Positions 1,340-46,010 of a stretch of DNA of 64,000 bases are shown here, piece after piece. Positions within the stretch are counted from its first letter, which is position 1. Every line of letters begins with the position of its first letter. The position numbers and the translations under genes are program-made. The DNA is from Acidimicrobiia bacterium (GTDB taxonomy: Bacteria > Actinomycetota > Acidimicrobiia > Spongiisociales > UBA5794): contig JAWKJB010000003.1 of NCBI GenBank assembly GCA_041393965.1, forward strand, positions 192,488 through 256,487, written 5' to 3'. Below the pieces are notes generated by a model. That model ran no database searches. It was given only the letters and a program-made list of their open reading frames with translations, and was not told the DNA's origin.

Positions 1340-2818
1340 ATGACTCGATATGTCGGGGCGATCGATCAGGGGACCACGAGCTCGCGATTCGTCGTCGTCG
1401 ATGATCGAGGCTCGATCGTTGCGAGAGCCCAGACGGAGCATGCCCAGATCCTCCCGCGACCCGGATGGGTCGAGCACGACCCATCCGAGATCTGGCGCAA
1501 CACCGAGTGGGCGATCTCGACGGCCCTCGACGAGGCCGGTCTCGTGGCGTCCGACCTTGCCGGCGTTGGTATCACCAACCAGCGTGAGACCACCGTCGTG
1601 TGGGACCGCTCGACCGGGAGACCCGTTGCGAACGCGATCGTGTGGCAAGACACGAGGACGGCGGAACTCTGCCGCTCGATCGCAGAGCGGGTTGGCGAAG
1701 ATGTCCTCCGACATCGAACGGGCCTTCCCGCCGCAACCTACTTCTCGGGGCCGAAGGTCCGGTGGCTGCTCGACTCGGATCCAGCGATCGCAACTGCGGC
1801 GTCCCGTGGAGAGCTGGCCTTCGGGACCGTTGATTCGTGGCTTGCGTTCCGGCTGACCGGCCGCCATGTCACCGATGTGACCAATGCGTCGAGGACGATG
1901 TTGATGGATCTCCGGACACTTGAGTGGGATGCGGATCTGTGCGACGCGATCGGGGTTCCCGCGTCGATGCTTCCGACGATCGAGGCGTCCGTCGCGCAGT
2001 ACGGGCCATGTGATGGTGTCCTCGCGGGCACGCAGCTGCGTGCCATCCTCGGCGATCAGCAGGCAGCCCTCTTCGGGCAGGCTGCGTTCGCTCACGGCGA
2101 CACCAAATGTACCTATGGCACCGGCGCCTTCCTGTTGACCAACACAGGTACCGTGCCGGTGCCATCCACCGCCGGGCTGCTGACGACGGTGGCATATCAA
2201 AGGCAAGGGCACGATGCGCGGTATGCCCTTGAGGGATCGGTTGCCGTCGCGGGGTCGTCGGTGCAATGGCTGCGCGACAATCTCGGTCTCATCGAGCACT
2301 CGGCCCAGGTCGAGGAGTTGGCTCGGCAGGTGTCCGACAACGGCGATGTGTATTTCGTTCCTGCGTTCTCGGGGCTGTTCGCACCGCACTGGCGTCCCGA
2401 CGCGCGAGGGGTGTTGGTCGGTCTCACCCGATTCAGCAACAGGGGGCATGTTGCTCGCGCCGTACTGGAAGCAACGGCATTCCAGGTCAAGGATGTCCTC
2501 GTGGCGATGCGCAACGACACGAAGACGAGCCTCGATGAACTCCGGGTCGACGGGGGAATGGTTGCCAACGAGCTCCTGATGCAGTTCCAGGCGGACATCC
2601 TCGACATGGATGTCGTGGTTCCCACCCAGATCGAGACCACGGTCCTCGGAGCCGCATATGGGGCGGGAATCACCGCAGGGATCTGGTCGGGAGCTGATGA
2701 TGTTCGCGACCGATGGACGGAACGGGAACGGTTCACACCTGGTCTGACGGTCGAACGAAGAACCGAACTCGATCGGGGGTGGCGAAAGGCCGTCGAGCGC
2801 TCCCTTGGCTGGGCCTGA
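1340..2818 (+). CDS. glpK: glycerol kinase
   Basis: 492 aa; N-terminal AIDQGTTSSRF, FGTVDSWL and full FGGY-kinase architecture of GlpK. Confidence 0.92.
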   Translation: MTRYVGAIDQGTTSSRFVVVDDRGSIVARAQTEHAQILPRPGWVEHDPSEIWRNTEWAISTALDEAGLVASDLAGVGITNQRETTVVWDRSTGRPVANAIVWQDTRTAELCRSIAERVGEDVLRHRTGLPAATYFSGPKVRWLLDSDPAIATAASRGELAFGTVDSWLAFRLTGRHVTDVTNASRTMLMDLRTLEWDADLCDAIGVPASMLPTIEASVAQYGPCDGVLAGTQLRAILGDQQAALFGQAAFAHGDTKCTYGTGAFLLTNTGTVPVPSTAGLLTTVAYQRQGHDARYALEGSVAVAGSSVQWLRDNLGLIEHSAQVEELARQVSDNGDVYFVPAFSGLFAPHWRPDARGVLVGLTRFSNRGHVARAVLEATAFQVKDVLVAMRNDTKTSLDELRVDGGMVANELLMQFQADILDMDVVVPTQIETTVLGAAYGAGITAGIWSGADDVRDRWTERERFTPGLTVERRTELDRGWRKAVERSLGWA

Positions 2819-2984
2819 GGCACTCCAGGCCGTTGTGGCTCAACGGGTGACCGTCCGTCGGCGTGATGATGGCGGAGTGGTCCCCGACCAGCACCCATCG
2901 CCGGCGATGCAACAGGCGGACAGCCGGATGCGGGCGCGACGGGCACCCTGCCCACGGTGCCGGAATCGCTTAGGCTCCGGGACC

Positions 2985-3539
2985 ATGTCGATCCCGAACC
3001 TCCTCGCTGTGACCCGGCTCGTGCTCACCCCCGTCGCGATGGTGCTGATCCTCCATTCGCCACAGGGGCGTGGTTACGCGTACGCCGCGGCAATCGTGTT
3101 CGGTGTCGCCGCCGCAACGGATTTTGCTGACGGCTATCTCGCCCGGAGGTGGCGTATCACGACCACACTCGGCGCGTTCTTGGATCTCGTCGCGGACAAG
3201 GTGCTCATCACCGGGTCCCTGATCGCGCTCGTGGCGATCGGGGCGACTTCGACCTGGGCCGCCTTCCTGATCATCGGAAGGGAGGTGGCGGTGATGGGGC
3301 TCCGATCCGTCGCAGCACTCGATCATTTCTCGGTTCCTCCTTCGATCTGGGGGAAGTGGAAGGCGACGGTCCAGTTCGTTGCGATCTTCTTCGCGATCCT
3401 GCTTCTCGATGTCGAGATCGGCCCGCTGCGTCTCGATGAGTGGCTGATGTGGGTTGCTGTCGGGGTCACGCTGCTGTCAGCAGGTGACTACTTCTCCCGA
3501 TTCCGGTCCGTGTTGTCACGGAAGGACCGCGCTGGGTAG
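2985..3539 (+). CDS. pgsA: CDP-diacylglycerol--glycerol-3-phosphate 3-phosphatidyltransferase (CDP-alcohol phosphatidyltransferase family)
   Basis: ATG at 2985 (MSIPNLL…), chosen over the long upstream ORF extension; D-G-x2-A-R…G-x3-D-x3-D motif (DFADGYLARR…FLDLVADKV); multiple TM helices. Confidence 0.8.
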   Translation: MSIPNLLAVTRLVLTPVAMVLILHSPQGRGYAYAAAIVFGVAAATDFADGYLARRWRITTTLGAFLDLVADKVLITGSLIALVAIGATSTWAAFLIIGREVAVMGLRSVAALDHFSVPPSIWGKWKATVQFVAIFFAILLLDVEIGPLRLDEWLMWVAVGVTLLSAGDYFSRFRSVLSRKDRAG

Positions 3540-3559
3540 CGGCGCGCGGCTGCGCGGCG

Positions 3560-3617
3560 CAACCCTGGGTTCCCACTCGGTCTGAGCCGACTGGCAGCCC
3601 TGGGCTCTACCCAGGGT
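3560..3617. repeat. inverted repeat/hairpin: AACCCTGGGT (3560-3569) … ACCCAGGGTT (3608-3617), 38-nt spacer containing a third CCCTGGG; degenerate member of the CCCAGGGTT motif family
   Basis: read directly in the pgsA-mfd intergenic region. Confidence 0.7.
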
Positions 3618-3631
3618 TAGCCTCCGGCCTT

Positions 3632-6600
3632 GTGTCTGCTCCGCTCCGCGCGCTCGTCGAGGCTTGGCGCCCGGCCCTTGATCCGCCGGTTCCGGGGCGT
3701 TTCGTCGTGCCACCGGCGGTCAGGGCGTTCATGCTCGCAGGAATGCTCGAAACGGCCGATCGGCCCCTCTTGGCGATCGTGGCGGGAGATCGCGAGGCTG
3801 AGGAGCTCGCTGAGGACATCGAGCTGTTCACGGACGAGGTCCATCATCTCCCGGCCTGGGAAACGCTCCCCTTCGAACATGTGTCGCCCAACATCGTCAC
3901 GATGGGTCGAAGGGTCGTTGCCCGCCACGCCCTCGACGCAGCGTACAAGGGCGTCGTCGTCGCTTCGGTTCGCGCGGTGTCACAGCGCCTGTCGCCGACG
4001 CGCACGGCACCGGTGCTCCTCGAGGCGGGCTCCACCCATGATTTCGATGATCTCGTCACCACCTTGAGCCACATCGGGTACCACCGCGTTGATCGGGTCG
4101 AAGCGAGGGGTGACTTCACGGTGAGGGGCGGCATCATCGACCTTTTTCCGCCGGAGGCAAACACCCCGATCCGGCTCGACTTCGTTGGTGACACCCTCGA
4201 CGAGATCCGCACCTTCTCGGTTTCCACACAGCGTTCCGATGAGCGCAAGGACACCGTTGCCGTGTTCCCTGCCCGCGAGCTCCTCCTCACCGAGGAAGTC
4301 CGCGACCGGGCGCGGGCCCTGATGGTCGAAGCGCCGTGGGCAGCCGCGACATGGGAGCGCATCGCCCAAGGGGTCGCATTCCAGGGCATGGAATCGTGGC
4401 TGCCCTGGTTGTCGGAACCGGCGACGCTGCTCGATGCCAAGACTCCGACCGTGGTCGTGTTCGATCGTTCGCGATGCGCCGAGCGCCTCGAGGAACTGAT
4501 TCGCGAGGAAGCCGATCTCGCAGAGGCACTGTCGGGGACATGGGGAACGGGGGAACCCGCCCCGAGCGATCATCCTCCCTTGTATCTCCCCCTCGACATT
4601 GACTCGGTCGGCGACCACCTGCTCGAGGCGGCTCCCCACGCCGCCGGGCCCGGTGATGATGGATACTCGCTCGGTGCCCTCGACGGGACCCCGGGTGATC
4701 CCGAGTCGATCGCCTCAGCGATCAACCGGTGGTCCGCTCGCGGCGTGTCGATCATCGTCGCAATGGATGGTGAGGGTGCCGCCAACCGGGCGGCAAAGGT
4801 CCTCTTGGAGGGGGGAGCCGACCTCCCGGTCATGTCGGAGCTCACAACGATCAGTCAGGCGGTGACCCCGACCGGAATCCACGCGGGGTTCATCCTTCCC
4901 TCCGCGGGCGTTGGGGTTGTCGGCGAGCGGGAGGTGGCTGGGAGACGCCGGGCCCATCGCCGCCTCCGGCCCGGCCACGGACGAGTTCCGAGGGATGCTT
5001 ACCGCGACCTCAACGAGGGCGACTTCGTCGTGCATCACCATCACGGGATCGGCCGGTTCGCCGGCCTCGTGCATCGCGAGATGGCAGGCGTGGAACGGGA
5101 CTACCTGCTGATCGAGTACGCAGCAGGAGACCGCCTCTATGTCCCGACCGATCAGCTTGCCGCCGTCACACGGTACACGGGTGGAGAGTCGCCTCGCCTA
5201 TCGCGTATGGGTGGTGCCGACTGGAACCAGGTCAGGTCCCGGATACGCAAGGAGGTCGCCGTGGTGGCCGACCAGGTCGTCGCGCTGCACCGCAAGCGTG
5301 CCGCCGCCGCCGGGCACACCTTCGGACCCGACACACCATGGCAGCACGAATTCGAGGCCGCGTTCCCGTACGAGGAAACTCCGGACCAGCAGCAGGCAAT
5401 CCTCGATGTCAAGGCTGACATGGAATCCGAGCGGCCCATGGACCGCCTCATCTTCGGTGATGTCGGCTTCGGCAAGACCGAAGTCGCCATCCGAGCCATG
5501 TTCAAGGCCGTCCAGGGAGGCAAGCAGGCCGCAATGCTTGTGCCGACCACACTTCTCGCCCAGCAGCATTTCGCAACCTTCGAGGACCGCTTCGCCCCGT
5601 ACCCGGTTCGGGTCGAGATGCTGTCCCGTTTTCTGACACCCGCCCAGCAACGGGAGGTCATCGCCGGCCTTGCCGACGGCACCGTGGACATCGTGGTCGG
5701 CACGCACCGACTGCTGTCCTCCGATATCGCGTTCGGCGACCTCGGTCTCGTGGTGGTCGACGAGGAGCAGCGCTTCGGCGTGGCCGCGAAGGACGCGCTT
5801 CGCGAGCTGCGTACCAGCACCGATGTGCTGACACTGACGGCAACACCGATCCCGAGGACGCTCGAGATGGCGCTCACCGGGATCCGCGATGTCTCCAACA
5901 TCCGGACCGCACCACAGGACCGGCATCCGATCCTGACCTATGTCGGACCATACGACGAGCAGGCCGTTTCGGCCGCGATCCGGCGCGAGATGCTGCGCGA
6001 GGGCCAGGTGTATGTCGTGCACAACCGGGTCCAGTCGATCGACCACGCCGTCACCCGACTTGCGGCGCTGGTGCCGGACGCTCGGATCGGGGTCGCCCAC
6101 GGACAGATGGGTGAAGCCCAACTTGAGCAGGTGATGTTCGACTTTTGGAACCGCCAATACGATGTTCTCGTGGCCACAACCATCATCGAATCGGGGCTCG
6201 ATGTCCCGCAGGTCAACACGCTCATCGTTGAGCGTTCCGATCGGTTGGGGCTGGCGCAGCTCTATCAGCTCCGTGGGAGGGTCGGGCGCTCGAACCAGCG
6301 GGCATACGCCTACCTGTTCCATCCGCCGGAGGAACGCATCGGCGAGGATGCCTACCGGCGTCTCGAGGCGATCGGGCAGTTCTCCGACCTTGGGAGCGGC
6401 TTCGAGCTCGCGATGCGGGACCTCGAGATCAGGGGGGCTGGCAGCGTGCTGTCCGAGACGCAATCGGGCCACATCGCAGCGGTCGGGTTCGACCTGTACA
6501 CGGAGCTCGTTGCCGACGCGGTCCTTGAACTGCAGGGAGGGGGACCACCGGTTCCGGAGCCATCACCGATCCGGATCGACCTCCCACTCGACGCCCATCT

Positions 6601-7024
6601 CCCCGACGGCTATGTGTCCGGTGTTGAGACCCGCCTCGAAGCGTACCGGCGTCTCGCTGCGGCTCGGAGCCTCGACGATGTCCACGATGTCGTTGCCGAA
6701 TGGCGTGATCGTTTCGGCGACCTGCCGGCGGCGGCCGAGGCCCTGATCGCGGTCGCCGAGCTCCGGGTCGAAGCGGCACGGCTCGGGATCGCCGAGATCC
6801 TCCAGACGCGGGACGAGGTCCGGATCAAACCCGTGGCTATGCGGGCATCCCAGGAGGTTCGGTTCAAGCGAATTGCACGGGACGGTTTGTTCCGCAACGG
6901 CACCGTGTACCTCCCGGCATCATTTGTGGGCACGACCGATCCCGCAGGTGCGATTGTCGGCTTCCTCCGTACAATGTGGCCTGCATCCGACGATGCACCC
7001 CCCGACTCGCACGACACCAGGTAG
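3632..7024 (+). CDS. mfd: transcription-repair coupling factor Mfd
   Basis: GTG start; 1130 aa; UvrB-homology N-region, DEAD/DEAH helicase motifs (GDVGFGKTEVA, DEEQRFGV), TRG motif and C-terminal D7; near colinear with Mycobacterium Mfd. Confidence 0.95.
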   Translation: MSAPLRALVEAWRPALDPPVPGRFVVPPAVRAFMLAGMLETADRPLLAIVAGDREAEELAEDIELFTDEVHHLPAWETLPFEHVSPNIVTMGRRVVARHALDAAYKGVVVASVRAVSQRLSPTRTAPVLLEAGSTHDFDDLVTTLSHIGYHRVDRVEARGDFTVRGGIIDLFPPEANTPIRLDFVGDTLDEIRTFSVSTQRSDERKDTVAVFPARELLLTEEVRDRARALMVEAPWAAATWERIAQGVAFQGMESWLPWLSEPATLLDAKTPTVVVFDRSRCAERLEELIREEADLAEALSGTWGTGEPAPSDHPPLYLPLDIDSVGDHLLEAAPHAAGPGDDGYSLGALDGTPGDPESIASAINRWSARGVSIIVAMDGEGAANRAAKVLLEGGADLPVMSELTTISQAVTPTGIHAGFILPSAGVGVVGEREVAGRRRAHRRLRPGHGRVPRDAYRDLNEGDFVVHHHHGIGRFAGLVHREMAGVERDYLLIEYAAGDRLYVPTDQLAAVTRYTGGESPRLSRMGGADWNQVRSRIRKEVAVVADQVVALHRKRAAAAGHTFGPDTPWQHEFEAAFPYEETPDQQQAILDVKADMESERPMDRLIFGDVGFGKTEVAIRAMFKAVQGGKQAAMLVPTTLLAQQHFATFEDRFAPYPVRVEMLSRFLTPAQQREVIAGLADGTVDIVVGTHRLLSSDIAFGDLGLVVVDEEQRFGVAAKDALRELRTSTDVLTLTATPIPRTLEMALTGIRDVSNIRTAPQDRHPILTYVGPYDEQAVSAAIRREMLREGQVYVVHNRVQSIDHAVTRLAALVPDARIGVAHGQMGEAQLEQVMFDFWNRQYDVLVATTIIESGLDVPQVNTLIVERSDRLGLAQLYQLRGRVGRSNQRAYAYLFHPPEERIGEDAYRRLEAIGQFSDLGSGFELAMRDLEIRGAGSVLSETQSGHIAAVGFDLYTELVADAVLELQGGGPPVPEPSPIRIDLPLDAHLPDGYVSGVETRLEAYRRLAAARSLDDVHDVVAEWRDRFGDLPAAAEALIAVAELRVEAARLGIAEILQTRDEVRIKPVAMRASQEVRFKRIARDGLFRNGTVYLPASFVGTTDPAGAIVGFLRTMWPASDDAPPDSHDTR

Positions 7025-37436: not shown

Positions 37437-38090
37437 ATGCAGTCCGTGCCGACCGACCGTTCACGCGTCCGCCGCCTCCCGGAGCGGGGTGCCTATGACC
37501 TCGACACGATCGAGGCGATCATCGATGCGGCTGCGATCTGTCATGTCGGGTTCGAGACCGACGACGGAGCGATCGTGATCCCAACGATCCACGCAAGGGT
37601 CGGAAAAACGCTGTACCTGCACGGATCACCGGCGTCGCGGATGCTCAGGGCGATACCGGGTCAGCAGGTGTGTGTGACGATCACGATCGTCGACGGCATC
37701 GTGGTTGCCCGATCGGCGTTCCACCACTCGATGAACTACCGGTCCGTGATGATCTTCGGGGTGCCGAGAGTGGTGGACGACCCGACCGAGCGGATCATCG
37801 CCCTCGAAGCCGTGACCGAACATGTCCTGCCTGGCCGGTGGGCAGAAGCAAGGCGTCCCAACGACGCCGAGAACCGAGCGACGAAGCTGCTTGCAATCGA
37901 CATCGGTGAGGCATCCGCCAAGATCCGGACGGGCCCCCCCGGTGACGACGCCGAGGACATGGACCTCGACATCTGGGCAGGGGTCATTCCGTTGACCGTG
38001 GTGCCAGGTACACCGGTTGCTGCCCCCGATCTCAAACGCGGCGTGGCGATCCCCCCGTCCGTTGAGCGTTACGGCTCAGCGCGCACCTGA
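37437..38090 (+). CDS. pyridoxamine 5'-phosphate oxidase-like FMN/F420-binding split-barrel protein
   Basis: ATG 37437, 2 nt after the ABC stop; PNPOx-like fold signatures (…HVGFETDDGAIVIPT…LYLHGS…). Confidence 0.65.
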   Translation: MQSVPTDRSRVRRLPERGAYDLDTIEAIIDAAAICHVGFETDDGAIVIPTIHARVGKTLYLHGSPASRMLRAIPGQQVCVTITIVDGIVVARSAFHHSMNYRSVMIFGVPRVVDDPTERIIALEAVTEHVLPGRWAEARRPNDAENRATKLLAIDIGEASAKIRTGPPGDDAEDMDLDIWAGVIPLTVVPGTPVAAPDLKRGVAIPPSVERYGSART

Positions 38091-38882
38091 ACTGGTCGCC
38101 GTGTTGATGTCATCTCGCCATGCGAGCCACTCCGACAAGGGCGCAAGGTCGTAGACCGGCCCGGTCAACCCTACGGTGAATTCGGTTGCGCCCGCGGCGT
38201 GGAGGGCGTCGGCGGTCCTGATCTTGGTCGGGCCAACCCCGATCGATCGGCGGATCTCGGATGGATCCCTTCCAATGGCCTCGCAGTGGCCGTCGAGCAC
38301 GCCGGTCTTGTGGCTGAAGATCGCAACATCACCGAAGCTGTGCCAGATGTCTGCGTGCTCGGCAACGATGCGGAGCGTGACCTTCTCGCCACCGCCTCCG
38401 ATGAGGATGGGCATCGGCCCGACGGCTGGCGGATCGAGCGCGGCCAGGCGCTTCTTGATGAGCGGCATTGCCCCGGCAAGGTCACGGAGCCGGGTCCTTG
38501 CGGTGCCGAATTCGTACCCGTACTCGTCGTAGTCCTTCTCGAACCATCCAGCGCCGATCCCGAGGATCAGCCGACCACCCGACATGACATCGACCGTCCG
38601 GGCCATGTCGGCGAGCAGCTGGGGATTCCGGTAGGAGTTGCAGGTCACGAGCGCGCCGATGCTGATCCGCTCGGTCGCCTCTGCCCACGCTCCGAGCATC
38701 GTCCAGCACTCGAAGTGCTTTCCGACATTCGGGTCAGGGATACCCCCGTGGAGCGGGAAGAAGTGGTCCCAGTTGTAGATCACATCCACACCCATGGCTT
38801 CGATTGCCGCAACGGCGCGGCGGATCTCGGCGTACTCGGCGTGCTGCGGTTGGAGCTGAACGGCGACGCGAACACGGTGCAT
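38076..38882 (-). CDS. LLM class (luciferase-like) flavin/F420-dependent oxidoreductase
   Basis: LLM TIM-barrel motifs (…YNWDHFFPL…; GIGAGW). Confidence 0.8.
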   Translation of the reverse strand: MHRVRVAVQLQPQHAEYAEIRRAVAAIEAMGVDVIYNWDHFFPLHGGIPDPNVGKHFECWTMLGAWAEATERISIGALVTCNSYRNPQLLADMARTVDVMSGGRLILGIGAGWFEKDYDEYGYEFGTARTRLRDLAGAMPLIKKRLAALDPPAVGPMPILIGGGGEKVTLRIVAEHADIWHSFGDVAIFSHKTGVLDGHCEAIGRDPSEIRRSIGVGPTKIRTADALHAAGATEFTVGLTGPVYDLAPLSEWLAWRDDINTATSSGAR

Positions 38883-38920
38883 TGGACTCCTCAGTTGATG
38901 CCTGTAAGAAACCTACCCCC

Positions 38921-38947
38921 ACGCGTACCCAGGGTTCGCGTTCGACG
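38921..38947 (+). repeat. intergenic repeat element copy A (ACGCGTACCCAGGGTTCGCGTTCGACG)
   Basis: read directly; 25/27 identical to the reverse complement of 39022-39048; 20-nt core identical to 45260-45279. Confidence 0.8.
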
Positions 38948-39021
38948 AAAAGGTGTTCTCCTGCCCACAGAAGCTCCCCATTCACCCAAACCCCCATTCC
39001 GTGGGCCATAAGTGACCCTTT

Positions 39022-39048
39022 CGTTGAACGGGAACCCTGGGTACGCGT
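39022..39048 (-). repeat. intergenic repeat element copy B (inverted relative to copy A; the pair spans 128 bp in the LLM/gltB divergent promoter region)
   Basis: read directly: CGTTGAACGGGAACCCTGGGTACGCGT. Confidence 0.8.
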
Positions 39049-39161
39049 GAACGGTGGATTTCGTGAATTGGATCACGAGTGATACGGTGTGCGTTCGTTT
39101 CGGGCCGGGCGCCGACCCGAGAGCTGCCCCTTGAGGTCGATGCTCGCCCGCCAAGAGAGGT

Positions 39162-42100
39162 GTGAACAGGGTGAGCCGGTTTCCGCTATATGACACGAGT
39201 CAGCACCACGATGCGTGTGGTGTTGGGTTCATCGCGGATCGGTCCGCCTCCGTGTCGCACCGCATCGTCCGTCTCGGCGTCCAATGTCTGCACAACCTCG
39301 ATCACCGGGGTGCGAGAGCAGCAGACGGGACCGGTGATGGTGCCGGGGTCATGACCCGGATTCCGCACCGCATCGTCGAGCGTGACCTCACCGCAGCAGG
39401 AATCGCCCCTCCGCCCCGGGACCGCATCGGCGTCATCGCAGGTTTCTTCCCGCGAGCACGATCGACCTCGGACGCCAAGGCGATCATCGAGGCGGTCCTC
39501 GCGGACAACGGCATCGAGACGCTGCTGTGGCGTCGTGTTCCCATCGACCGCAATGTGCTGTCCGCGACCGCTCGGCGGACGCTTCCCAAGATCCGCCAGG
39601 CCTTCGTTGCTGCATCGGACGACATCGCGGATCCCGACGCCTTCGAGCGGGCGATGTTCCTCGCGCGCAAGCAGATCGAACAACGCGACGACCTTCCCGG
39701 GTTCACGGTTTCGTCGGCGTCGGCGCGTACCGTGGTGTACAAGGGTCTGTTCACCGCCGATCTCATCGAGGACTTCTACTGGGACCTCCGGGATCCCGCG
39801 TACGAATCCGATTTTGTGATCTTTCATCAACGCTATTCGACCAACACCCAACCGGCGTGGGAACTCGCGCAACCCTTCCGGATGCTTGCCCACAATGGGG
39901 AGATCAACACGATCCAGGGCAATCGTTCCTGGATGGCCGCGCGCTCGAATGATCTCGGAACGAGCGTCTGGGGGGATCGGACACCGGATCTTGCGCCGCT
40001 GGTGCGGCCGGGCATCGGGAGCGACTCAGCGAGCCTCGACGAGGCCTTCGAGGTGCTGGTCCGCTCGGGACGGTCCCTTGCCCATGTCAAGGAGATGCTG
40101 ATACCCCAAGCATGGGAGAATGTCCCCGACCTCGATCCGTCGCTCAAGGCCTTTCACGAATACCACGCGTTCCTCACCGAGCCATGGGACGGTCCTGCCG
40201 CGATTGCTGCCTCGGACGGAACAACGCTCATCGCCGGACTCGACCGCAATGGATTGCGGCCTGCGCGTTGGGCCATCTCGCCGGACACGATCGTCGTTGC
40301 CTCCGAGGCAGGCGTTGCGCCCGAGATCGAGGTGGTTGCTCTCGAGACGGGACAGCTCGGTCCGGGGGAGATGCTCGAAGTCGACCTCGCCACGGGCACC
40401 CACACCATGTCGTTGGAACTCAAGCAGCGGCTTGCACGCCTTGCCCCATACGCCGACTGGATCACGATGCAGACCAACTATGTGAACGATCCGTTCGATG
40501 AGCTTCAAGACGAACGATTCGATCCCGACGCGCTCGCGCGGGTGTTCGGCTACACCTCCGAAGAGCGGCGGCTGCTGCTCGAGCAGATGACCGATGGCGT
40601 CGAACCGATCCTGTCGATGGGACACGACACCGGCCTTGCTGCATTGTCGCCGCATCCCCAGCGCATGCCGAGATATTTCCATCAAGCGTTCGCGCAGGTG
40701 ACCAACCCACCGATGGATCCGATCCGTGAGAAGCTCGTGATGTCGCTGCTGACCTATGTGGGGAAGCACGGTTCGCTTCTCGAAGAAACCGAGCAGCAGG
40801 CACACATGATCGAGCTCGCGTCACCGGTCCTTTCCGATGCAGAAGTCGAGGCGCTCCGATCCTCGTCCGATCCGACCTTCGCTTCAGCGTGGATCGACAT
40901 CTTGTACCGACCAGCACCGGGTGCAGCGCCCCTTGTCGACGCGATCGCAGCGGTCTGTGACAGGGCCGAGGAGGCGGTGAGGGCGGGAGCATCGATCATC
41001 ATGCTGTCTGATCGTGCTACCGACGCGGACTTGGCACCGATCCCCATCCTGATGGCGGTCGGTGCGGTCCACCATCGGCTCATCGACACCGGCCTACGGC
41101 TCAACGCATCCATCATTGCCGTGAGCGGGGAGCCACGCGATGCGCACGACCTTGCATGCCTCATCGGCTTTGGCGCCGCAGCCGTGAACCCGTATCTGGC
41201 GATCGAGCAGGTACGAAGCATGGCTGCCGACGGGATGGTCGACCACGGTGTGGTCGAGGCGCAAGAGAACTATCGGTCGAGCCTTGAGAAGGGGCTTCTC
41301 AAGATCATGTCCAAGATGGGAATCTGCACCGTGAAGTCGTACCGGAGCTCCGAGCTGTTCGAGGCAATCGGCCTCGATGACGAGGTCGTCGACCTTTGCT
41401 TCCGCAATGTGCAGCGCAGGGTCGGAGGTGTCGGCATCGAGCGGATCGCCAACGATGTGTTGGTCCGACACGCTCGCTACCGCACGGGTGACACCGAGAT
41501 CGAGGGCTACTACAAACACCGCGGCGGCGGTGTTCCACACGCTGCCGGCCCCATGAATGTCCTTGCCCTCCAGCGCGCCGTGCGCTCCGGTGATGCCGAG
41601 GCCTATGACCGCTATGTGAACCTGATCGAACACGAAACGCCCGCGATGGAGATTCGCGACCTGCTCGAGATCGGGACGCTCGGCGAACCGGTTCCGCTCG
41701 AGTCCGTGGAACCGGCGGAAGAAGTCATGCGGCGTTTCGTCACGGCAGCGATGTCGCTCGGCGCGCTGTCTGCTGAGGTCCACCAGACGCTCGCGGCGGC
41801 CATGAACCGGATCAGGGGCCGATCGAATTCGGGTGAGGGTGGCGAAGACCCCGCGAGGTACGGAACGGAGCTCAACTCGGCGATCAAGCAGGTGGCAAGC
41901 GGCCGGTTCGGTGTCACGCCGGGATACCTTGCATCTGCCGCGGAGTTCCAGATCAAGATGGCGCAGGGCTCGAAACCCGGAGAGGGCGGTCAGCTCCCCG
42001 GGCACAAGGTCACTGCCGAGATCGCTGCGCTGCGTCACACCGAACCAGGCGTGACATTGATCTCACCGCCTCCGCACCACGACATCTACTCCATCGAGGA

Positions 42101-43640
42101 CCTCGCCCAGCTCATCTACGACCTCAAGACCTTCAAGCCCAAGGCGGCGGTGTCGGTGAAGCTGGTGTCGGGTCCCGGCGTCGGAACGATCGCCGTCGGT
42201 GTCGCCAAGGCCCATGCTGACGGCATCACCGTGTCGGGCAACGGAGGGGGAACCGGGGCATCCCCGCTGGTGTCGATCAAGCACGCCGGATCTCCATGGG
42301 AGATCGGTGTCGCCGAGGCTCACCAGGCGCTGGTCGCGAACGGGCTCCGTGGTTCGATTTCTCTCGAAACCGACGGTGGACTGCGCACCGGCCGTGACAT
42401 CGTGATTGCTGCGTTGTTGGGAGCCGACCGATTCGGTTTCGGGACGCTTCCACTGCTTGCGCTCGGGTGCAAGATGGTCCGCCAGTGTCATCTCAACACC
42501 TGTCCCGTCGGGATCACGACCCAGCGCGAGGACCTGCGAGCCAAGTACACCGGTTCGGTGGAACAGGTGATCGAACTGTTCCGACTGCTCGCAGAGGATG
42601 TCAGGCGGCATCTCGCGCGAATCGGTGCGACCGCGATCGATGAGATCGTTGGCCGCGGTGACCTTCTCACCGCTACCGATGGCGGGATCGGTGCAAGCCT
42701 CGCCAGCTTGCTGGTTCGGGCAGACATCGGTGAGGAGCGGCCGTTCCGGCGCACGGCGCGCTCGCCCCTCGGCGACATCCTCGCCGATCTCGGCCGCGAG
42801 GTCGCCGAAACGGAACGGCCCACGGTCGTGTCCTTTCCGATCAAGAACACGGAGCGTTCGGTCGGCACCCGGCTCTCGGGAGATGTCGCTGCATCCAAAG
42901 GTGATGCGGGGCTCCCCGAAGGCACTTTCACGATTCGCCTCTCGGGAACGGCTGGCCAGTCCTTCGGAGCCTTCCTCTCGAATGGCATCGATCTCGACCT
43001 CGACGGGGTCGCAAACGACTATGTCGGGAAGGGCATGGGCGGTGGATCGATCTCGATCCGACCCTATCCGGGTACCCGGTCGGTTCCCCATGTTGCCGGC
43101 AACGCCTGTCTGTATGGGGCGACGGGTGGAGCGCTGTATGCCGCTGGATCCGTCGGTCAGCGCTTCGCGGTGCGCAACTCGGGGGCAACCGCCGTCGTGG
43201 AGGGAGCTTCGGACCATCTCGCCGAATACATGACCGGGGGCACCGTCGCGGTCCTCGGTCCGACTGGGCGCAATGTCGCGGCGGGGATGACCGGCGGCGT
43301 GCTGTATCTGTACGACGCGGACCTCGGGGTCAAGGGCAGGCTCGCGGACAGCGCAACTCGTCTCGAACGGCTCGGAGCCGACGATGGAAGGCGACTGCAC
43401 GCCCTCGTTGCTGAGCACCACATTCGGACCGGATCCGGGGTTGCGAAAGCTCTCCTTGACGATTGGGACGACGCCGTGGATCGGTTCTGGGTACTGCGCC
43501 CCGAGCCCCCGGAGCCGCGGGTGATCGGTGCCACGGATGCGGCGACCGATGTCATCTCATCGCACCTCATCGATCGGGAGTCAACCGACGGCTTCCCGCC
43601 GCCGCTGCCGCTTGCGTCGAGGGAACAATTCGTCCGCTGA
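39162..43640 (+). CDS. gltB: glutamate synthase large (alpha) subunit
   Basis: 1492 aa; N-terminal Ntn amidotransferase Cys (…DACGVGF…), central FMN/3Fe-4S domain, C-terminal GXGXG beta-helix domain; no gltD follows. Confidence 0.95.
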   Translation: MNRVSRFPLYDTSQHHDACGVGFIADRSASVSHRIVRLGVQCLHNLDHRGARAADGTGDGAGVMTRIPHRIVERDLTAAGIAPPPRDRIGVIAGFFPRARSTSDAKAIIEAVLADNGIETLLWRRVPIDRNVLSATARRTLPKIRQAFVAASDDIADPDAFERAMFLARKQIEQRDDLPGFTVSSASARTVVYKGLFTADLIEDFYWDLRDPAYESDFVIFHQRYSTNTQPAWELAQPFRMLAHNGEINTIQGNRSWMAARSNDLGTSVWGDRTPDLAPLVRPGIGSDSASLDEAFEVLVRSGRSLAHVKEMLIPQAWENVPDLDPSLKAFHEYHAFLTEPWDGPAAIAASDGTTLIAGLDRNGLRPARWAISPDTIVVASEAGVAPEIEVVALETGQLGPGEMLEVDLATGTHTMSLELKQRLARLAPYADWITMQTNYVNDPFDELQDERFDPDALARVFGYTSEERRLLLEQMTDGVEPILSMGHDTGLAALSPHPQRMPRYFHQAFAQVTNPPMDPIREKLVMSLLTYVGKHGSLLEETEQQAHMIELASPVLSDAEVEALRSSSDPTFASAWIDILYRPAPGAAPLVDAIAAVCDRAEEAVRAGASIIMLSDRATDADLAPIPILMAVGAVHHRLIDTGLRLNASIIAVSGEPRDAHDLACLIGFGAAAVNPYLAIEQVRSMAADGMVDHGVVEAQENYRSSLEKGLLKIMSKMGICTVKSYRSSELFEAIGLDDEVVDLCFRNVQRRVGGVGIERIANDVLVRHARYRTGDTEIEGYYKHRGGGVPHAAGPMNVLALQRAVRSGDAEAYDRYVNLIEHETPAMEIRDLLEIGTLGEPVPLESVEPAEEVMRRFVTAAMSLGALSAEVHQTLAAAMNRIRGRSNSGEGGEDPARYGTELNSAIKQVASGRFGVTPGYLASAAEFQIKMAQGSKPGEGGQLPGHKVTAEIAALRHTEPGVTLISPPPHHDIYSIEDLAQLIYDLKTFKPKAAVSVKLVSGPGVGTIAVGVAKAHADGITVSGNGGGTGASPLVSIKHAGSPWEIGVAEAHQALVANGLRGSISLETDGGLRTGRDIVIAALLGADRFGFGTLPLLALGCKMVRQCHLNTCPVGITTQREDLRAKYTGSVEQVIELFRLLAEDVRRHLARIGATAIDEIVGRGDLLTATDGGIGASLASLLVRADIGEERPFRRTARSPLGDILADLGREVAETERPTVVSFPIKNTERSVGTRLSGDVAASKGDAGLPEGTFTIRLSGTAGQSFGAFLSNGIDLDLDGVANDYVGKGMGGGSISIRPYPGTRSVPHVAGNACLYGATGGALYAAGSVGQRFAVRNSGATAVVEGASDHLAEYMTGGTVAVLGPTGRNVAAGMTGGVLYLYDADLGVKGRLADSATRLERLGADDGRRLHALVAEHHIRTGSGVAKALLDDWDDAVDRFWVLRPEPPEPRVIGATDAATDVISSHLIDRESTDGFPPPLPLASREQFVR

Positions 43641-43834: not shown

Positions 43835-45241
43835 ATGACCACGGTGGATATCGATCTCGGTAGTTATCAGCTTGGCTGGTCCGACTCCGAGGACGCCTAT
43901 GTCTACAAGCCCGAGAAGGGACTGACCGAACAGCTCATCCGCGACATGTCGAAGATGAAGGGTGAACCCGAGTGGATGCTCGAGTTCCGCCTCAAGGCGT
44001 ACCAGCGGTTCTTGCGCAAGCCGACCCCGACCTGGGGCGGTGCGGGCTTGCTCGAGACCATCGACTACGACGACATCTACTACTACATCAAGCCGACCGA
44101 GGGCCAAGCCAAGGACTGGGACATGGTTCCCGAGTCGATCAAGGACACCTACGAGAAGCTCGGTATCCCCCAAGCAGAACGCAAGTACCTCGCCGGCGTG
44201 ACCGCACAGTATGAGTCTGAAGTCGTCTACCACCGCAATCGCGAGGATCTCGAGAAACTCGGCGTGCTGTTCTCCGACATGGACACCGCCGTGCGCGAAT
44301 ACCCCGACCTCGTCCGCGAGTACTTCGGCACCGTCATCCCGCCGAACGACAACAAGTTCGCGTCGCTGAACTCGGCTGTCTGGTCCGGCGGTTCGTTCAT
44401 CTATGTGCCCCCCGGCGTGCATGTCGACCAGCCCCTCCAGGCATACTTCCGGATCAACGCCGAATCGATGGGGCAGTTCGAACGCACCCTGATCATCGTG
44501 GACGAAGGCGCCTACTGCCACTATGTCGAGGGCTGTTCGGCGCCAACCTATTCAAATGACTCGCTTCATGCGGCGGTGGTCGAGGTCATCGTCAAGGACG
44601 GTGGCCGCTGTCGTTACACGACCATTCAGAACTGGTCGAACAATGTGCTCAATCTTGTCACCAAGCGGGCGACCGCCTACAAGAACGCCACCATGGAATG
44701 GATCGACGGCAACCTCGGCTCCGGGCTGACCATGAAGTATCCCGCGGTGTGGCTCATGGACGAAGGGGCACACGGGGAGGTGCTGTCGATCGCCTTCGCA
44801 AACACCGGCCAGGTTCTCGATGCCGGGGCCAAGATGGTGCATGCGGCACCACACACCACATCGCTCATCACCTCCAAGTCGATCAGCAAGGGGGGTGGCC
44901 GGTCGGCGTACCGCGGCCTTGTTCGGGTCGAGGAGGGCGCAGAGGACGCCAAGGCCTTTGTCCGGTGCGATGCGTTGCTGCTCGACGAGGACTCCCGATC
45001 AGACACCTACCCGTACATGGAGATCGAGGAGTCCGACATCGACATCGGACACGAGGCGACCGTGTCCAAGGTGGGTGAGGACCAACTGTTCTACCTGATG
45101 AGCCGAGGACTGACCGAGGAACAGGCGACCGCGATGGTGGTGGCGGGGTTCATCGAGCCCATCGTCAAGGAACTCCCGATGGAGTACGCCGTCGAACTGA
45201 ACCGCCTCATCGAACTCCAGATGGAAGGCGCCATCGGCTGA
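43835..45241 (+). CDS. sufB: Fe-S cluster assembly protein SufB
   Basis: 468 aa; conserved SufB N-terminus and C-terminal beta-helix core. Confidence 0.93.
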
Positions 45242-45259
45242 CCGCGGTTGCGCGTACCC

Positions 45260-45279
45260 ACGCGTACCCAGGGTTCGCG
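45260..45279 (+). repeat. intergenic repeat element copy C (ACGCGTACCCAGGGTTCGCG), preceded by a partial direct duplication GCGCGTACCCA
   Basis: read directly, 19 nt after the sufB stop. Confidence 0.8.
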
Positions 45280-45350
45280 GACCACCGAAATGGTCGCTGC
45301 CGACCCACAGAACGGATCGCCGGATCTGCCGCTCGTTACGCTGGGCGGCG

Positions 45351-46010
45351 ATGCGCATCCGGGTAGCTGTCTGCACCGTACGGTACGAAGGTCGCCTCAA
45401 CGCGTCGCTGCCTGAGGCAACGCGGCTCGTGATGGTCAAAGCGGACGGTTGCGTCGCGATCCATGCCGACGGTGCTGCGTACAAGCCGCTCAATTGGATG
45501 AACGCACCCAACACGATCACCGAGGACGACGATTCGTGGACGGTCGTCAATCCCAAGGGGGAGCGACTCACCATTCGATTCCGAGAGGTCCTCTTCGAGG
45601 AGTCGTTCGACATGGGAGACGACCCCGGGCTCGAAAAGGACGGTGTCGAGCTCGAACTCCAGCGGTTGATCGCGCAACGACCCGAGACGCTCGGTGCTGG
45701 CATGGCACTGGTACGCCGTGAATATCCGACGCCGATCGGCCCGGTCGACTTGCTGTGCCGTGCACAGGACGGTTCGACGGTTGCCGTCGAGATCAAGCGT
45801 CGTGGCGAGATCCAAGCCGTCGAGCAGCTCACCCGGTATCTCGAGTTCCTGAACCGCGACACCCGCATCGCCCCGGTCACGGGCATCCTGGCCGCACAGC
45901 TCATCAAGCCGCAGGCTCGGCTCCTTGCTGTGGATCGCGGCATCGAGTGCGTGGAGATCGACTACGACGCCCTGCGCGGTGCCGAATCAGACATCCTGCG
46001 ACTCTTCTGA
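45351..46010 (+). CDS. nucS: endonuclease NucS (EndoMS, mismatch-specific)
   Basis: 219 aa; N-terminus colinear with mycobacterial NucS (…[22 protein letters not shown]…); RecB-like nuclease C-domain. Confidence 0.88.

Follow-up and report, generated by a model that had tools for sequence, protein, structure and literature searches.

The inverted repeat in the intergenic region between the LLM gene and gltB belongs to a REP/BIME/REPIN-like family of non-coding intergenic repeats conserved throughout the class Acidimicrobiia. A REP-like structured repeat was one of the explanations offered by an earlier note on the 64,000-nucleotide stretch of DNA analysed here (the window), and it is the one that our data bear out. 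The element is multi-copy, intergenic, palindromic and class-wide, and its units occur singly, in tandem arrays and in inverted doublets. We give a probability of about 0.6 to the reading in which this REP/REPIN-like family has a winged-helix, Vsr/DUF559-like nuclease as its putative trans-acting partner. Recognition or spreading of the repeats by this nuclease is our inference from sequence comparison.

The repeat unit is approximately 53–59 nt long and is built of three blocks. The first, block 1, is a 21-nt palindrome of invariant sequence, ACGCGTACCCAGGGTTCGCGT, in which 97.7% of the cells pair in an alignment of 57 copies. Across variants, both sides have changed at 5 of 9 pairs, a two-fold symmetry whose score was reached in 0 of 500 shuffles. 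Block 2 is a variable, AT-centred and hairpin-like stretch of about 21 nt with a sequence specific to each genome; at 4 of 5 positions its pairs have changed on both sides, and its identity is 78% within genomes versus 50% between genomes. JBDLHX and CAZWDQ carry two block-2 types, which are reverse complements of each other. Block 3, GCCCAC(A/G)GAA, is an invariant, non-palindromic tail whose distance from block 1 does not vary, and it is 84% identical between genomes though it was not used for the selection of copies. The 57-copy alignment has no conserved GT[AG]G at either edge, and thus no GTAG head. Three further assignments were rejected. A third hairpin around block 3 pairs inconsistently between copies, and the likeness of block 2 to an NrdR box in one MAG is not shared by block 2 of other genomes. 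A CCCC tract upstream of the unit is part of the conserved flank in L005 and is therefore target or context, not element.

Profile search found exactly three full copies in the window. The sequence observations of the earlier note all hold, apart from two corrections given below. The 20-mer ACGCGTACCCAGGGTTCGCG occurs exactly at 38921-38940 (+) and 45260-45279 (+), and with one mismatch at 39029-39048 (−); 0.04 matches are expected by chance, and the observed count was reached in 0 of 100 shuffles. The match of 25 of 27 positions between copy A (38921-38947) and the reverse complement of copy B (39022-39048) also stands. The length of 20–27 bp then given to the repeat was too short, as the A and B arms comprise 53 nt, and the downstream flanks that had been seen to resemble each other belong to the repeat unit itself. 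Copy A extends over 38920..38972 on the plus strand (nhmmer 39.3 bits, E 1.9e-10; 38.9 bits with a wider model) and is made up of the block-1 palindrome CACGCGTACCCAGGGTTCGCGT (38920-38941), block 2 TCGACGAAAAGGTGTTCTCCTG (38942-38963) and block 3 CCCACAGAA (38964-38972). Copy B lies inverted at 38997..39049 on the minus strand (36.2 bits, E 1.8e-9), with block 1 CACGCGTACCCAGGGTTCCCG at 39049-39029 and block 3 CCCACGGAA at 39005-38997. Both are in the 279-bp intergenic gap between LLM and gltB (38883-39161), where they form a tail-to-tail doublet of 53-nt arms that are 79% complementary and 24 nt apart. The C-rich 24-nt spacer GCTCCCCATTCACCCAAACCCCCA between the two block-3 ends (38973..38996, unstranded) is the loop of a long hairpin. 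Folded as single-stranded DNA, 38910-39060 reaches −44.6 kcal/mol (z = −8.5), which none of 200 shuffles equalled; single units are unexceptional hairpins, with z between −1 and −2.

Copy C (45259..45314, +; 39.2 bits, E 2e-10) is a single unit between sufB and nucS, the gene that follows it. It starts 18 nt past the stop codon of sufB, and 37 nt separate its end from the nucS ATG. Block 1 occupies 45259-45279, block 2 is the hairpin GACCA-CCGAAA-TGGTC, and block 3, again CCCACAGAA, lies at 45304-45312. The partial direct duplication noted at this copy is real: its first 10 nt, CGCGTACCCA, have a 100% identical tandem duplicate at 45251..45260 (+), so that the direct repeat spans 45251-45270. 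Copy B has 75% identity with A and 77% with C. Because the three copies are only 72–77% alike pairwise, their sequences suggest that they are old and possibly inactive. The earlier note had also proposed a degenerate variant at 3560-3617, between the CDP-alcohol phosphatidyltransferase gene and mfd. The region 3559..3621 (unstranded) does hold three CCCWGGG block-1 cores, AACCCTGGGTT at 3561, GCCCTGGGC at 3597 and TACCCAGGGTT at 3608. It has no block 3, it was not scored as a copy, and the element profiles give sub-significant partial matches only (E 0.5–5); at best, these cores are a decayed relic of the element. The core ACCCWGGGT is found five times in the window against 0.31 expected, each time between genes (5/5). 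The gene names LLM, gltB, SufB, CDP-alcohol phosphatidyltransferase and mfd were borne out by Pfam.

The element is found throughout the class. An exact 19-mer scan with one genome per species gave 49 loci, 43 of them in Acidimicrobiia/Actinomycetota MAGs, and in nearly all of these 43 block 3 is at the same distance. By profile search we found about 60 full copies; they are spread over 44 loci, come from no fewer than 16 MAG species of Acidimicrobiia and are essentially all intergenic. As a lower bound on the number per genome, one fragmentary MAG holds at least 12 exact 19-mers, and the window holds 3 copies per 64 kb. In 30 cases the gene downstream is encoded on the strand of the copy, in 21 on the other strand. 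Many copies begin 4–28 nt past a stop codon and some lie between convergent genes. Their neighbours are 68 genes with 103 unrelated Pfam families and no common theme. Units form head-to-tail tandem arrays with a period of 59–60 nt (L019, L030, L034, L045 and L049), doublets that share a centre (L001, L003, L012 and L018) and tail-to-tail doublets (the window, L028 and L011). Viral contigs gave no match to the element. A metagenome scan for the window's CGAAA sub-type gave a single chance match, inside a low-GC coding region, and a literature search with the element sequence itself found nothing.

Occupancy of orthologous sites differs between species. The syntenic relatives L051, L052 and L055 have no element upstream of gltB, and it is likewise missing between sufB and nucS in L053 and L054. 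L055 has the LLM–gltB gap without the element, yet it carries an element at a site where the window has none. A metagenome scan for the empty LLM–gltB site gave no match, and an exact-protein look-up of the LLM protein returned no record. Copies within one genome evolve in concert. At one orthologous site of L005 and L032, where the flanking genes encode proteins of 82–88% identity, the element stands in opposite orientations, each with the block 2 of its own genome, and L003 has a doublet at this site. The intergenic spread in either orientation, the unrelated neighbours, the turnover in relatives and the orientation flip therefore indicate a REP/REPIN-like repeat and not an operator of the GlnR/AmtR type.

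A regulator-binding site at gltB had been suggested in the earlier note. Block 1 is a 21-bp palindrome and copies A and B lie within a divergent promoter region, as would suit the operator of a specific transcription factor (GlnR, AmtR or CsoR-like) for gltB, LLM and nucS. The sequence TACCC-N-GGGTA may resemble CsoR-type sites. The GlnR box is gTnAc-N6-GaAAc and the AmtR box is CTAT-N6-ATAG; the element is, in our estimation, unlike both. We consider an operator extremely improbable, since the 68 neighbouring genes are functionally unrelated, copies follow stop codons or separate convergent genes, neither orientation nor distance to gene starts is fixed, and the syntenic relatives lack the element upstream of their orthologous gltB and nucS. 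The distance to nearby −10-like hexamers also varies, from 4 to 30 nt. Two promoter readings were rejected. TATTTG and CAGAAT provide a usable −35 at no spacing, and the window copies have no TA motif, which speaks against a sigma-70 promoter. The 4 to 30 nt to TAnnnT hexamers speak against the element as a −35 donor to leaderless promoters. The conserved sequence upstream of gltB is at 39056-39125, to the right of the doublet. The A/B doublet has been inserted or retained upstream of the conserved gltB leader, beside the LLM promoter.

Selection at the transcript level, as for an sRNA, UTR element, terminator or mRNA stabiliser, might account for two hairpins followed by a conserved tail and for the copies that begin shortly after stop codons. 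Orientation is, however, random relative to both neighbouring genes, and neither strand of block 2 folds better than the other (26 versus 31 cases). A U-tract is absent, and RNAalifold recovers the invariant block-1 stem alone. Rfam at gathering score matches only tRNA in the window, and at E ≤ 10 it gives nothing relevant in 38850-39170. A structured RNA is therefore very unlikely indeed. A tRNA-derived origin came into view with L016, where the element directly follows tRNA-Val and block 3 resembles the junction; it was rejected, as ARAGORN finds the real tRNA only and there is no T-arm.

The proposal of a MITE bounded by A and B fits the shape of the doublet, with inverted 53-nt arms (38920-38972 and 38997-39049) and a short spacer, and this shape recurs in L028 and L011. 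On this account the parent would be an insertion sequence with a DDE transposase, and single units would be solo ends. No target-site duplication is present at 38919/39050, where the flanks ...CCTACCCC and GAACGGTGG have no common direct repeat, nor at the L005/L032 boundaries. None of 77 loci holds a transposase bounded by these ends; an rve-domain fragment does lie beside the element cluster in L019, but outside the elements. Single units are common, and a MITE would not be expected to form head-to-tail arrays or centre-sharing doublets, so that we hold this origin to be very unlikely. Neisseria Correia elements and ERIC resemble the A/B doublet in their inverted arms and short spacer, and mycobacterial MIRUs resemble the Acidimicrobiia arrays in lying head to tail in operon intergenic gaps. 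Unlike Correia, ERIC, RUP and MIRUs, the Acidimicrobiia unit has neither a target-site duplication nor a DDE transposase relative, commonly occurs singly and is not read as a small ORF.

Among known systems, the REP/REPIN elements of Pseudomonas and E. coli (PMC3116915, PMC3337134, PMC5581495) come closest. These likewise consist of short palindromic units, extragenic as essentially all copies found here are, and occur singly, clustered or as inverted doublets with long hairpin folds; their sequence is genome-specific while the architecture is kept. The Acidimicrobiia unit differs from REPs in that it is longer (53 nt), has the conserved non-palindromic block 3 and has no GTAG head; many species share identical blocks 1 and 3, and its hosts are Actinomycetota. 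The E. coli BIMEs, which are mosaics of Y and Z palindromic units, also show alternating orientation, short linkers and sub-types, but they have no sequence similarity to the Acidimicrobiia unit.

The candidate partner is a protein of approximately 300 aa with an AbiEi-like winged helix in the N-terminal part and a Vsr/DUF559-like PD-(D/E)XK nuclease in the C-terminal part. Its gene is bracketed by inverted element copies, with block 3 facing the gene, in all eight lineages (8/8). Two of these loci (L019 and L009) were reached through the element, and the others (L057, L058, L059/L060, L061, L062-066 and L067-071) were picked by protein homology alone; in all six of the latter the bracketing copies are of the variants that match the dispersed copies of that genome. 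The gene is found at two chromosomal sites with conserved synteny, sigma70-CBS-[gene]-HerA and proC-[gene]-Macro, and its neighbours are CBS, HerA/DUF87, P5CR and Macro genes. In each lineage, approximately 50 nt separate the upstream copy from the ATG. The downstream copy abuts or overlaps the stop codon in every lineage, and in one clade the last residues of the protein, ...HSAG*, are encoded by the inverted block 3. The protein has both the Vsr/DUF559-like PD-(D/E)XK fold, according to a fold search, and conserved acidic and histidine residues, with D232, E243, D245 and H250 invariant. Pfam REase_MTES_1575 matches below its gathering score (32 versus 38.2 bits), and a PDB sequence search with the protein profile found nothing. 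At E ≤ 1e-30, the profile family counts 2,931 representatives of 50%-identity clusters.

The geometry of the gene-bearing unit is that of the A/B doublet with the gene replacing the 24-nt spacer. By analogy, the bracketing is also that of a RAYT gene with its REPs, and in REP/REPIN-RAYT systems, too, the partner gene is inherited vertically, keeps its place in the chromosome and is flanked by the system's own repeats. RAYT is an HUH tyrosine transposase, whereas the partner here is a winged-helix protein with a Vsr/DUF559-like PD-(D/E)XK nuclease. The partner gene is absent from the window, and copies A, B and C would be linked to the nuclease through their membership of the family. Bracketing is not unique to the nuclease gene because SRAP (L032), methyltransferase (L037) and MscL (L024) genes are bracketed by inverted copies as well. 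It would also be expected if the repeats were an operator and terminator, or if the locus were a preferred landing site.

AbiEi represses its own operon through inverted repeats. The winged-helix protein might in the same way bind the elements without mobilising them, so that the bracketing copies would be its own operator and terminator and the dispersed copies orphan sites of a regulatory or nucleoid-type protein, spread by recombination, slippage or an unrelated transposase. The constant distance of the upstream copy from the ATG agrees with this, and the symmetry of block 1 suits dimer binding as well as a hairpin. Binding alone leaves unexplained the copy at the stop codon in every lineage, the tandem arrays, the genome-wide homogenisation of block 2 and the orientation flip at one orthologous site, and the invariant nuclease residues argue for an enzymatic role. 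We therefore rate it as rather unlikely. The partner gene differs from the AbiEi type IV toxin–antitoxin system in having no adjacent AbiEii nucleotidyltransferase toxin gene and in being bracketed by dispersed repeats. In a plasmid database search, genuine AbiEi–AbiEii pairs matched the partner protein over the N-terminal part only. The partner gene has no cytosine methyltransferase partner, in contrast to Vsr, and lies outside any intron or intein, in contrast to the I-Bth0305I homing-endonuclease fold.

Classical REPs or REPINs moved by a RAYT (IS200-like HUH) encoded elsewhere, with the nuclease gene as a frequent neighbour, would show every REP-like feature described above, and RAYT groups are present in many bacterial classes (PMC5581495). 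We nevertheless regard this as improbable. A regex search of about 0.45 Mb of locus DNA found no HUH...Y ORF, the GTAG head is absent, and the bracketed gene encodes the Vsr-like nuclease in 6 of 6 lineages picked by homology. Actinobacteria occur 0 times in the REPIN/RAYT papers checked. Bracketing is also seen in two distant Tsukamurella DUF559 homologues (26–33% identity), the only DUF559-fusion homologues in the plasmid search. Each is flanked by its own, different palindromes, unrelated to the Acidimicrobiia repeats, and at least one of the two palindromes is also present elsewhere in the same genome.

In the mechanism that we propose for the nuclease-partnered family, the partner protein would be the trans-acting factor that holds blocks 1 and 3 invariant. 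A dimer may bind the block-1 palindrome through its winged helix and nick nearby, and could thereby copy, convert or otherwise maintain the repeats. The A/B doublet and the single copy C would be non-autonomous members that depend on a partner gene elsewhere in the genome. Effects on LLM, gltB and nucS, possibly through a long hairpin within the 5′ region of LLM and a hairpin between sufB and nucS, would be side effects and not the element's reason to exist. More tentatively, the abundant actinobacterial AbiEi-domain/DUF559 proteins might be repeat-associated nucleases in general, each with a palindromic repeat of its own on both sides of the gene, able to spread in intergenic DNA. In one version of this idea the protein would be a free-standing homing-type endonuclease, and tail-to-tail doublets such as A/B would be the gene-bearing unit in its empty form; cutting or nicking at repeats might then lead to copying or gene conversion between them.

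For the window, our study removes a tempting regulatory reading of the gltB promoter region and locates the conserved gltB leader. REP/REPIN-RAYT systems serve as the model of a long-lived replicator that is inherited vertically in bacterial genomes, and to our knowledge essentially one enzyme family is known in them. In every lineage examined here, repeats with REPIN-like population behaviour are coupled to another enzyme, the winged-helix, Vsr/DUF559-like nuclease. If this coupling is functional, it would reveal the role of a very large and hitherto unexplained actinobacterial protein family and would represent a second, independent origin of nuclease–repeat partnerships, that is, a non-HUH route to the REPIN-RAYT lifestyle. 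Blocks 1 and 3 would then be a class-wide, sequence-invariant marker of the Acidimicrobiia, which are known almost only from metagenomes.

The copies in the window are members of a REP/REPIN-like family of intergenic repeats and are not a regulator site of gltB, and the same repeats bracket the gene for a winged-helix, Vsr-like nuclease in every relative examined. The 20-mer ACGCGTACCCAGGGTTCGCG reported in the earlier note occurs exactly at 38921-38940(+) and 45260-45279(+) and with one mismatch at 39029-39048(-), against 0.04 matches expected from dinucleotide-preserving shuffles. Its core, ACCCWGGGT, occurs five times (0.31 expected), each time between genes. The repeat itself is real but longer than described: the arms of the doublet formed by copies A and B (38920-38972 and 38997-39049) have 53 nt each, are 79% complementary and lie 24 nt apart. 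Alignment of A, the reverse complement of B and the single copy C (45259-45314) yields three blocks, namely CACGCGTACCCAGGGTTCsCG, a palindrome in itself (block 1), a variable stretch including CGAAAnGG (block 2) and CCCACrGAA (block 3). The three copies are 72-77% identical and are each other's closest likenesses. Folded as single-stranded DNA, the doublet reaches -44.6 kcal/mol (z = -8.5), and the folding of single units is unremarkable (z +0.5 to -2). The initial 10 nt of copy C, CGCGTACCCA, stand twice in tandem at 45251-45270, apparently through slippage or as a second copy cut short.

Pfam upheld the gene names given earlier: LLM (38076-38882, minus strand; protein MEZ5176483.1), gltB (39162-43640, plus), SufB (43835-45241, plus), CDP-alcohol phosphatidyltransferase (2805-3539) and mfd (3632-7024). 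One Logan contig is identical to a portion of the window. The doublet lies between a -10-like TAGGTT of LLM (38909-38914, minus strand), which is followed by a GAGGAG Shine-Dalgarno sequence, and a conserved gltB leader; copy C lies in the gap between sufB and nucS (45351-46010). A TAnnnT hexamer 6-8 nt 5' of the start codon is frequent in genes adjoining the elements (L005 4990-5000, L032 4383-4410, L008 ~2955-2990 and L017 ~700-745, loci from other genomes; TAGGAT-N6-ATG in the SRAP gene), and suggests leaderless mRNAs. The LLM and Pyridox_ox_2 (37437-38090) genes are convergent and overlap by 15 nt at 38076-38090. The supposed variant at 3559-3621, between the phosphatidyltransferase gene and mfd, does contain block-1 cores but did not score as a copy in a profile search. 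Its three palindromic CCCWGGG cores, without block 3, are possibly the decayed remains of copies; in UBA5794 (L011), the nearest relative sampled, a complete tail-to-tail doublet at 165-287 lies 5' of a pgsA-like gene instead.

A scan of one genome per GTDB species with CGCGTACCCAGGGTTCSCG gave 49 loci, 43 of them in Acidimicrobiia/Actinomycetota MAGs of at least 16 species. In nearly all of these 43, aGCCCAC(A/G)GAAyG follows downstream at equal distance. Block 3 is missing from the other six, in Proteobacteria, a haloarchaeon and Isoptericola, which are chance matches. A profile built from 44 copies found about 60 full copies in the scan loci and exactly three in the window. Block 3 is 84% identical between genomes, although it was not used in selection, and block 2 is 78% identical within genomes but only 50% between them. 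Rfam has no match to the element, and we found no paper with its sequence. In each of two MAGs (JBDLHX and CAZWDQ; L027, L028 and L032) the unit has two sub-types, with block 2 sequences CCGCCATATAGGACG and CCGTCCTATTTGGCGG that are mutual reverse complements and with GGGTTGGyr replacing GGGTTCGCG in the second; they recall the Y and Z units of E. coli BIMEs. In L016 (5490-5624) an element starts 8 nt past the 3' end of tRNA-Val, whose end with the next bases, GCCCACAGAAT, is identical to block 3.

The copies are intergenic; 30 share the strand of the downstream gene and 21 have the opposite one, and the strands of upstream genes are equally mixed. The 68 adjoining genes represent 103 Pfam families, including ABC transporters, aspartokinase, AlaRS, heliorhodopsin, UvrD and PPK2. 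Neighbours so varied, on mixed strands, exclude a regulon. The units occur singly, in head-to-tail arrays that repeat every 59-60 nt (L019, L030, L034, L045, L049), in head-to-head doublets with a common block-1 palindrome (L001, L003, L012, L018) and in tail-to-tail doublets with a spacer of ~14-24 nt (A/B, L028, L011). Across sequence variants, double changes keep the symmetry of block 1 at 5/9 positions. In one register 67% of the cells of block 2 pair, and four of five pairs show double changes; its hairpins are modest (mean z = -1.0) and the two strands fold equally well. The symmetry of block 1 points to a DNA-level palindrome, which could form a hairpin on one or the other strand or be bound by a dimer, and not to a strand-specific RNA.

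Relatives with the same ABC-ABC-Pyridox_ox-LLM synteny (LLM protein 73-77% identical) differ in occupancy. In L055, LLM adjoins gltB without the element, and a copy occupies the gap between the Pyridox_ox and ABC genes, which is empty in the window. The sufB-nucS gap of L053 and L054 is 54 nt long and lacks the element; a different perfect palindrome, GTAGTACAGAGTACGTACTACGTACTCTGT, takes the place of copy C there (L053 1041-1096). The sequence 5' of gltB that the window has in common with L051 is all found on the right-hand side of the doublet, within 39056-39125, and comprises GGATTT.G.GAAT, CACGAG(G)TGATA and, at ~39103-39122, the GC-rich hairpin CGGGCCGG.GCCGACCCG. These conserved segments are probably the true promoter and leader element of gltB; the weak match of Rfam p27_CRE to this region (E 0.024) is a chance one. 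L005 and L032, whose flanking genes encode proteins 82-88% identical, share the flanks GACGCTACCCAACCTGArTC ... GCGTAGGATCGGGG around units of opposite orientation, each with block 2 of its own genome's type. Compared with each other, they delimit a unit of about 57-59 nt, and there is no target-site duplication at its boundaries. L003 has a doublet 5' of the gene that follows this site, and L008 and L017 both have a unit 5' of aspartokinase in the same place and orientation. Taken together, these sites show that members of a resident repeat population have been re-inserted, inverted or subject to gene conversion. A fixed operator would not behave in this way. The binding site for a shared regulator proposed earlier is wrong, given the 103 neighbouring families and the orthologous sites without an element, and the REP-like alternative was right, the element being a multi-copy intergenic palindromic family. 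The third proposal, a MITE, agrees with the shape of the doublet but with nothing beyond it.

Two loci of different species in which inverted copies enclose a gene, L019 and L009, contain homologous genes; other such cases enclose unrelated ones (SRAP, methyltransferase, MscL). Homologues of the L019 protein were therefore searched and loci picked by protein similarity alone. The contigs of many homologues are no longer than 1.0-1.3 kb, as though assembly had stopped at the flanking repeats. Inverted copies surround the gene in 6/6 lineages so picked (L057; L058; L059/L060; L061; L062-066; L067-071), with block 3 toward the gene. The upstream copy ends ~45-55 nt 5' of the ATG; the downstream one is flush with the stop codon, or overlaps it, in the L019-like clade, and follows it by ~20-80 nt in the proC-Macro group. 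In L058 each side has two copies in tandem. The copies are of the genome's own variant, for example CTGCGAACCCAGGGTTCTC (L057, L058) or CTGCGAACCCAGGGCTCGCAG (L062), and L057, L059 and L062 have a further dispersed copy of it 2-2.5 kb away. The gene occupies two conserved chromosomal positions, sigma70-CBS-[gene]-HerA/DUF87 and proC-[gene]-Macro-racemase, a sign of vertical inheritance. In one clade it is the inverted block 3 that encodes the C-terminal residues of the protein, ...HSAG*. No homologue was found within the 64-kb window. In L019 an rve (integrase core) transposase fragment (3-563) directly adjoins a tandem element pair and the bracketed gene, and an IS may have inserted beside the palindromes. 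In MAG CAXMQQ the proC-Macro gene (L061) is flanked by the CTGCGAACCCTGGGCTCGTAG variant and the dispersed copies (L005, L049) are of the CGCGTACCCAGGGTTCGCG type, which suggests two protein/repeat pairs in one genome.

In Pfam the protein matches AbiEi_4 (up to 44 bits) and, below the gathering score, REase_MTES_1575/DUF559 (E ~1e-7). Its AlphaFold model has pLDDT 89 and pTM 0.76, and four residues (D232, E243, D245, H250) are invariant. The adjacent genes include no AbiEii toxin. This is a large family, whose cluster representatives number 2,931 at E <= 1e-30 and 15,901 at E <= 1e-10. The MTES_1575 domain has been described only as a novel Vsr-family REase (PMC3710099), and DUF559 has been grouped with Vsr and I-Bth0305I (PMC3424549); we found no report tying AbiEi/DUF559-type proteins to repeats. 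In a plasmid collection the only DUF559-fusion homologues were two Tsukamurella tyrosinosolvens genes, 26-33% identical to the Acidimicrobiia proteins; the remaining matches were true AbiEi-AbiEii pairs, matched only in the N-terminal part. Each Tsukamurella gene is bracketed by palindromes of its own, a 42-nt palindrome on either side (93% complementary) in L072, with more copies in unannotated DNA elsewhere in that genome, and, again on either side, doublets of ATTGAACACCGTTTCTG in L073.

A gene set into the spacer of the A/B doublet would give the geometry seen around the bracketed gene. The putative nuclease may recognise blocks 1 and 3, which would account for their invariance across species, and may copy or homogenise the units. 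As a repeat family alone the element is of an ordinary kind in an unusual lineage. The partner of REP repeats, RAYT, is an HUH enzyme; the constant pairing of the Acidimicrobiia repeats, in the relatives examined, with the gene for a putative non-HUH nuclease is what is new relative to the REP-RAYT theme.
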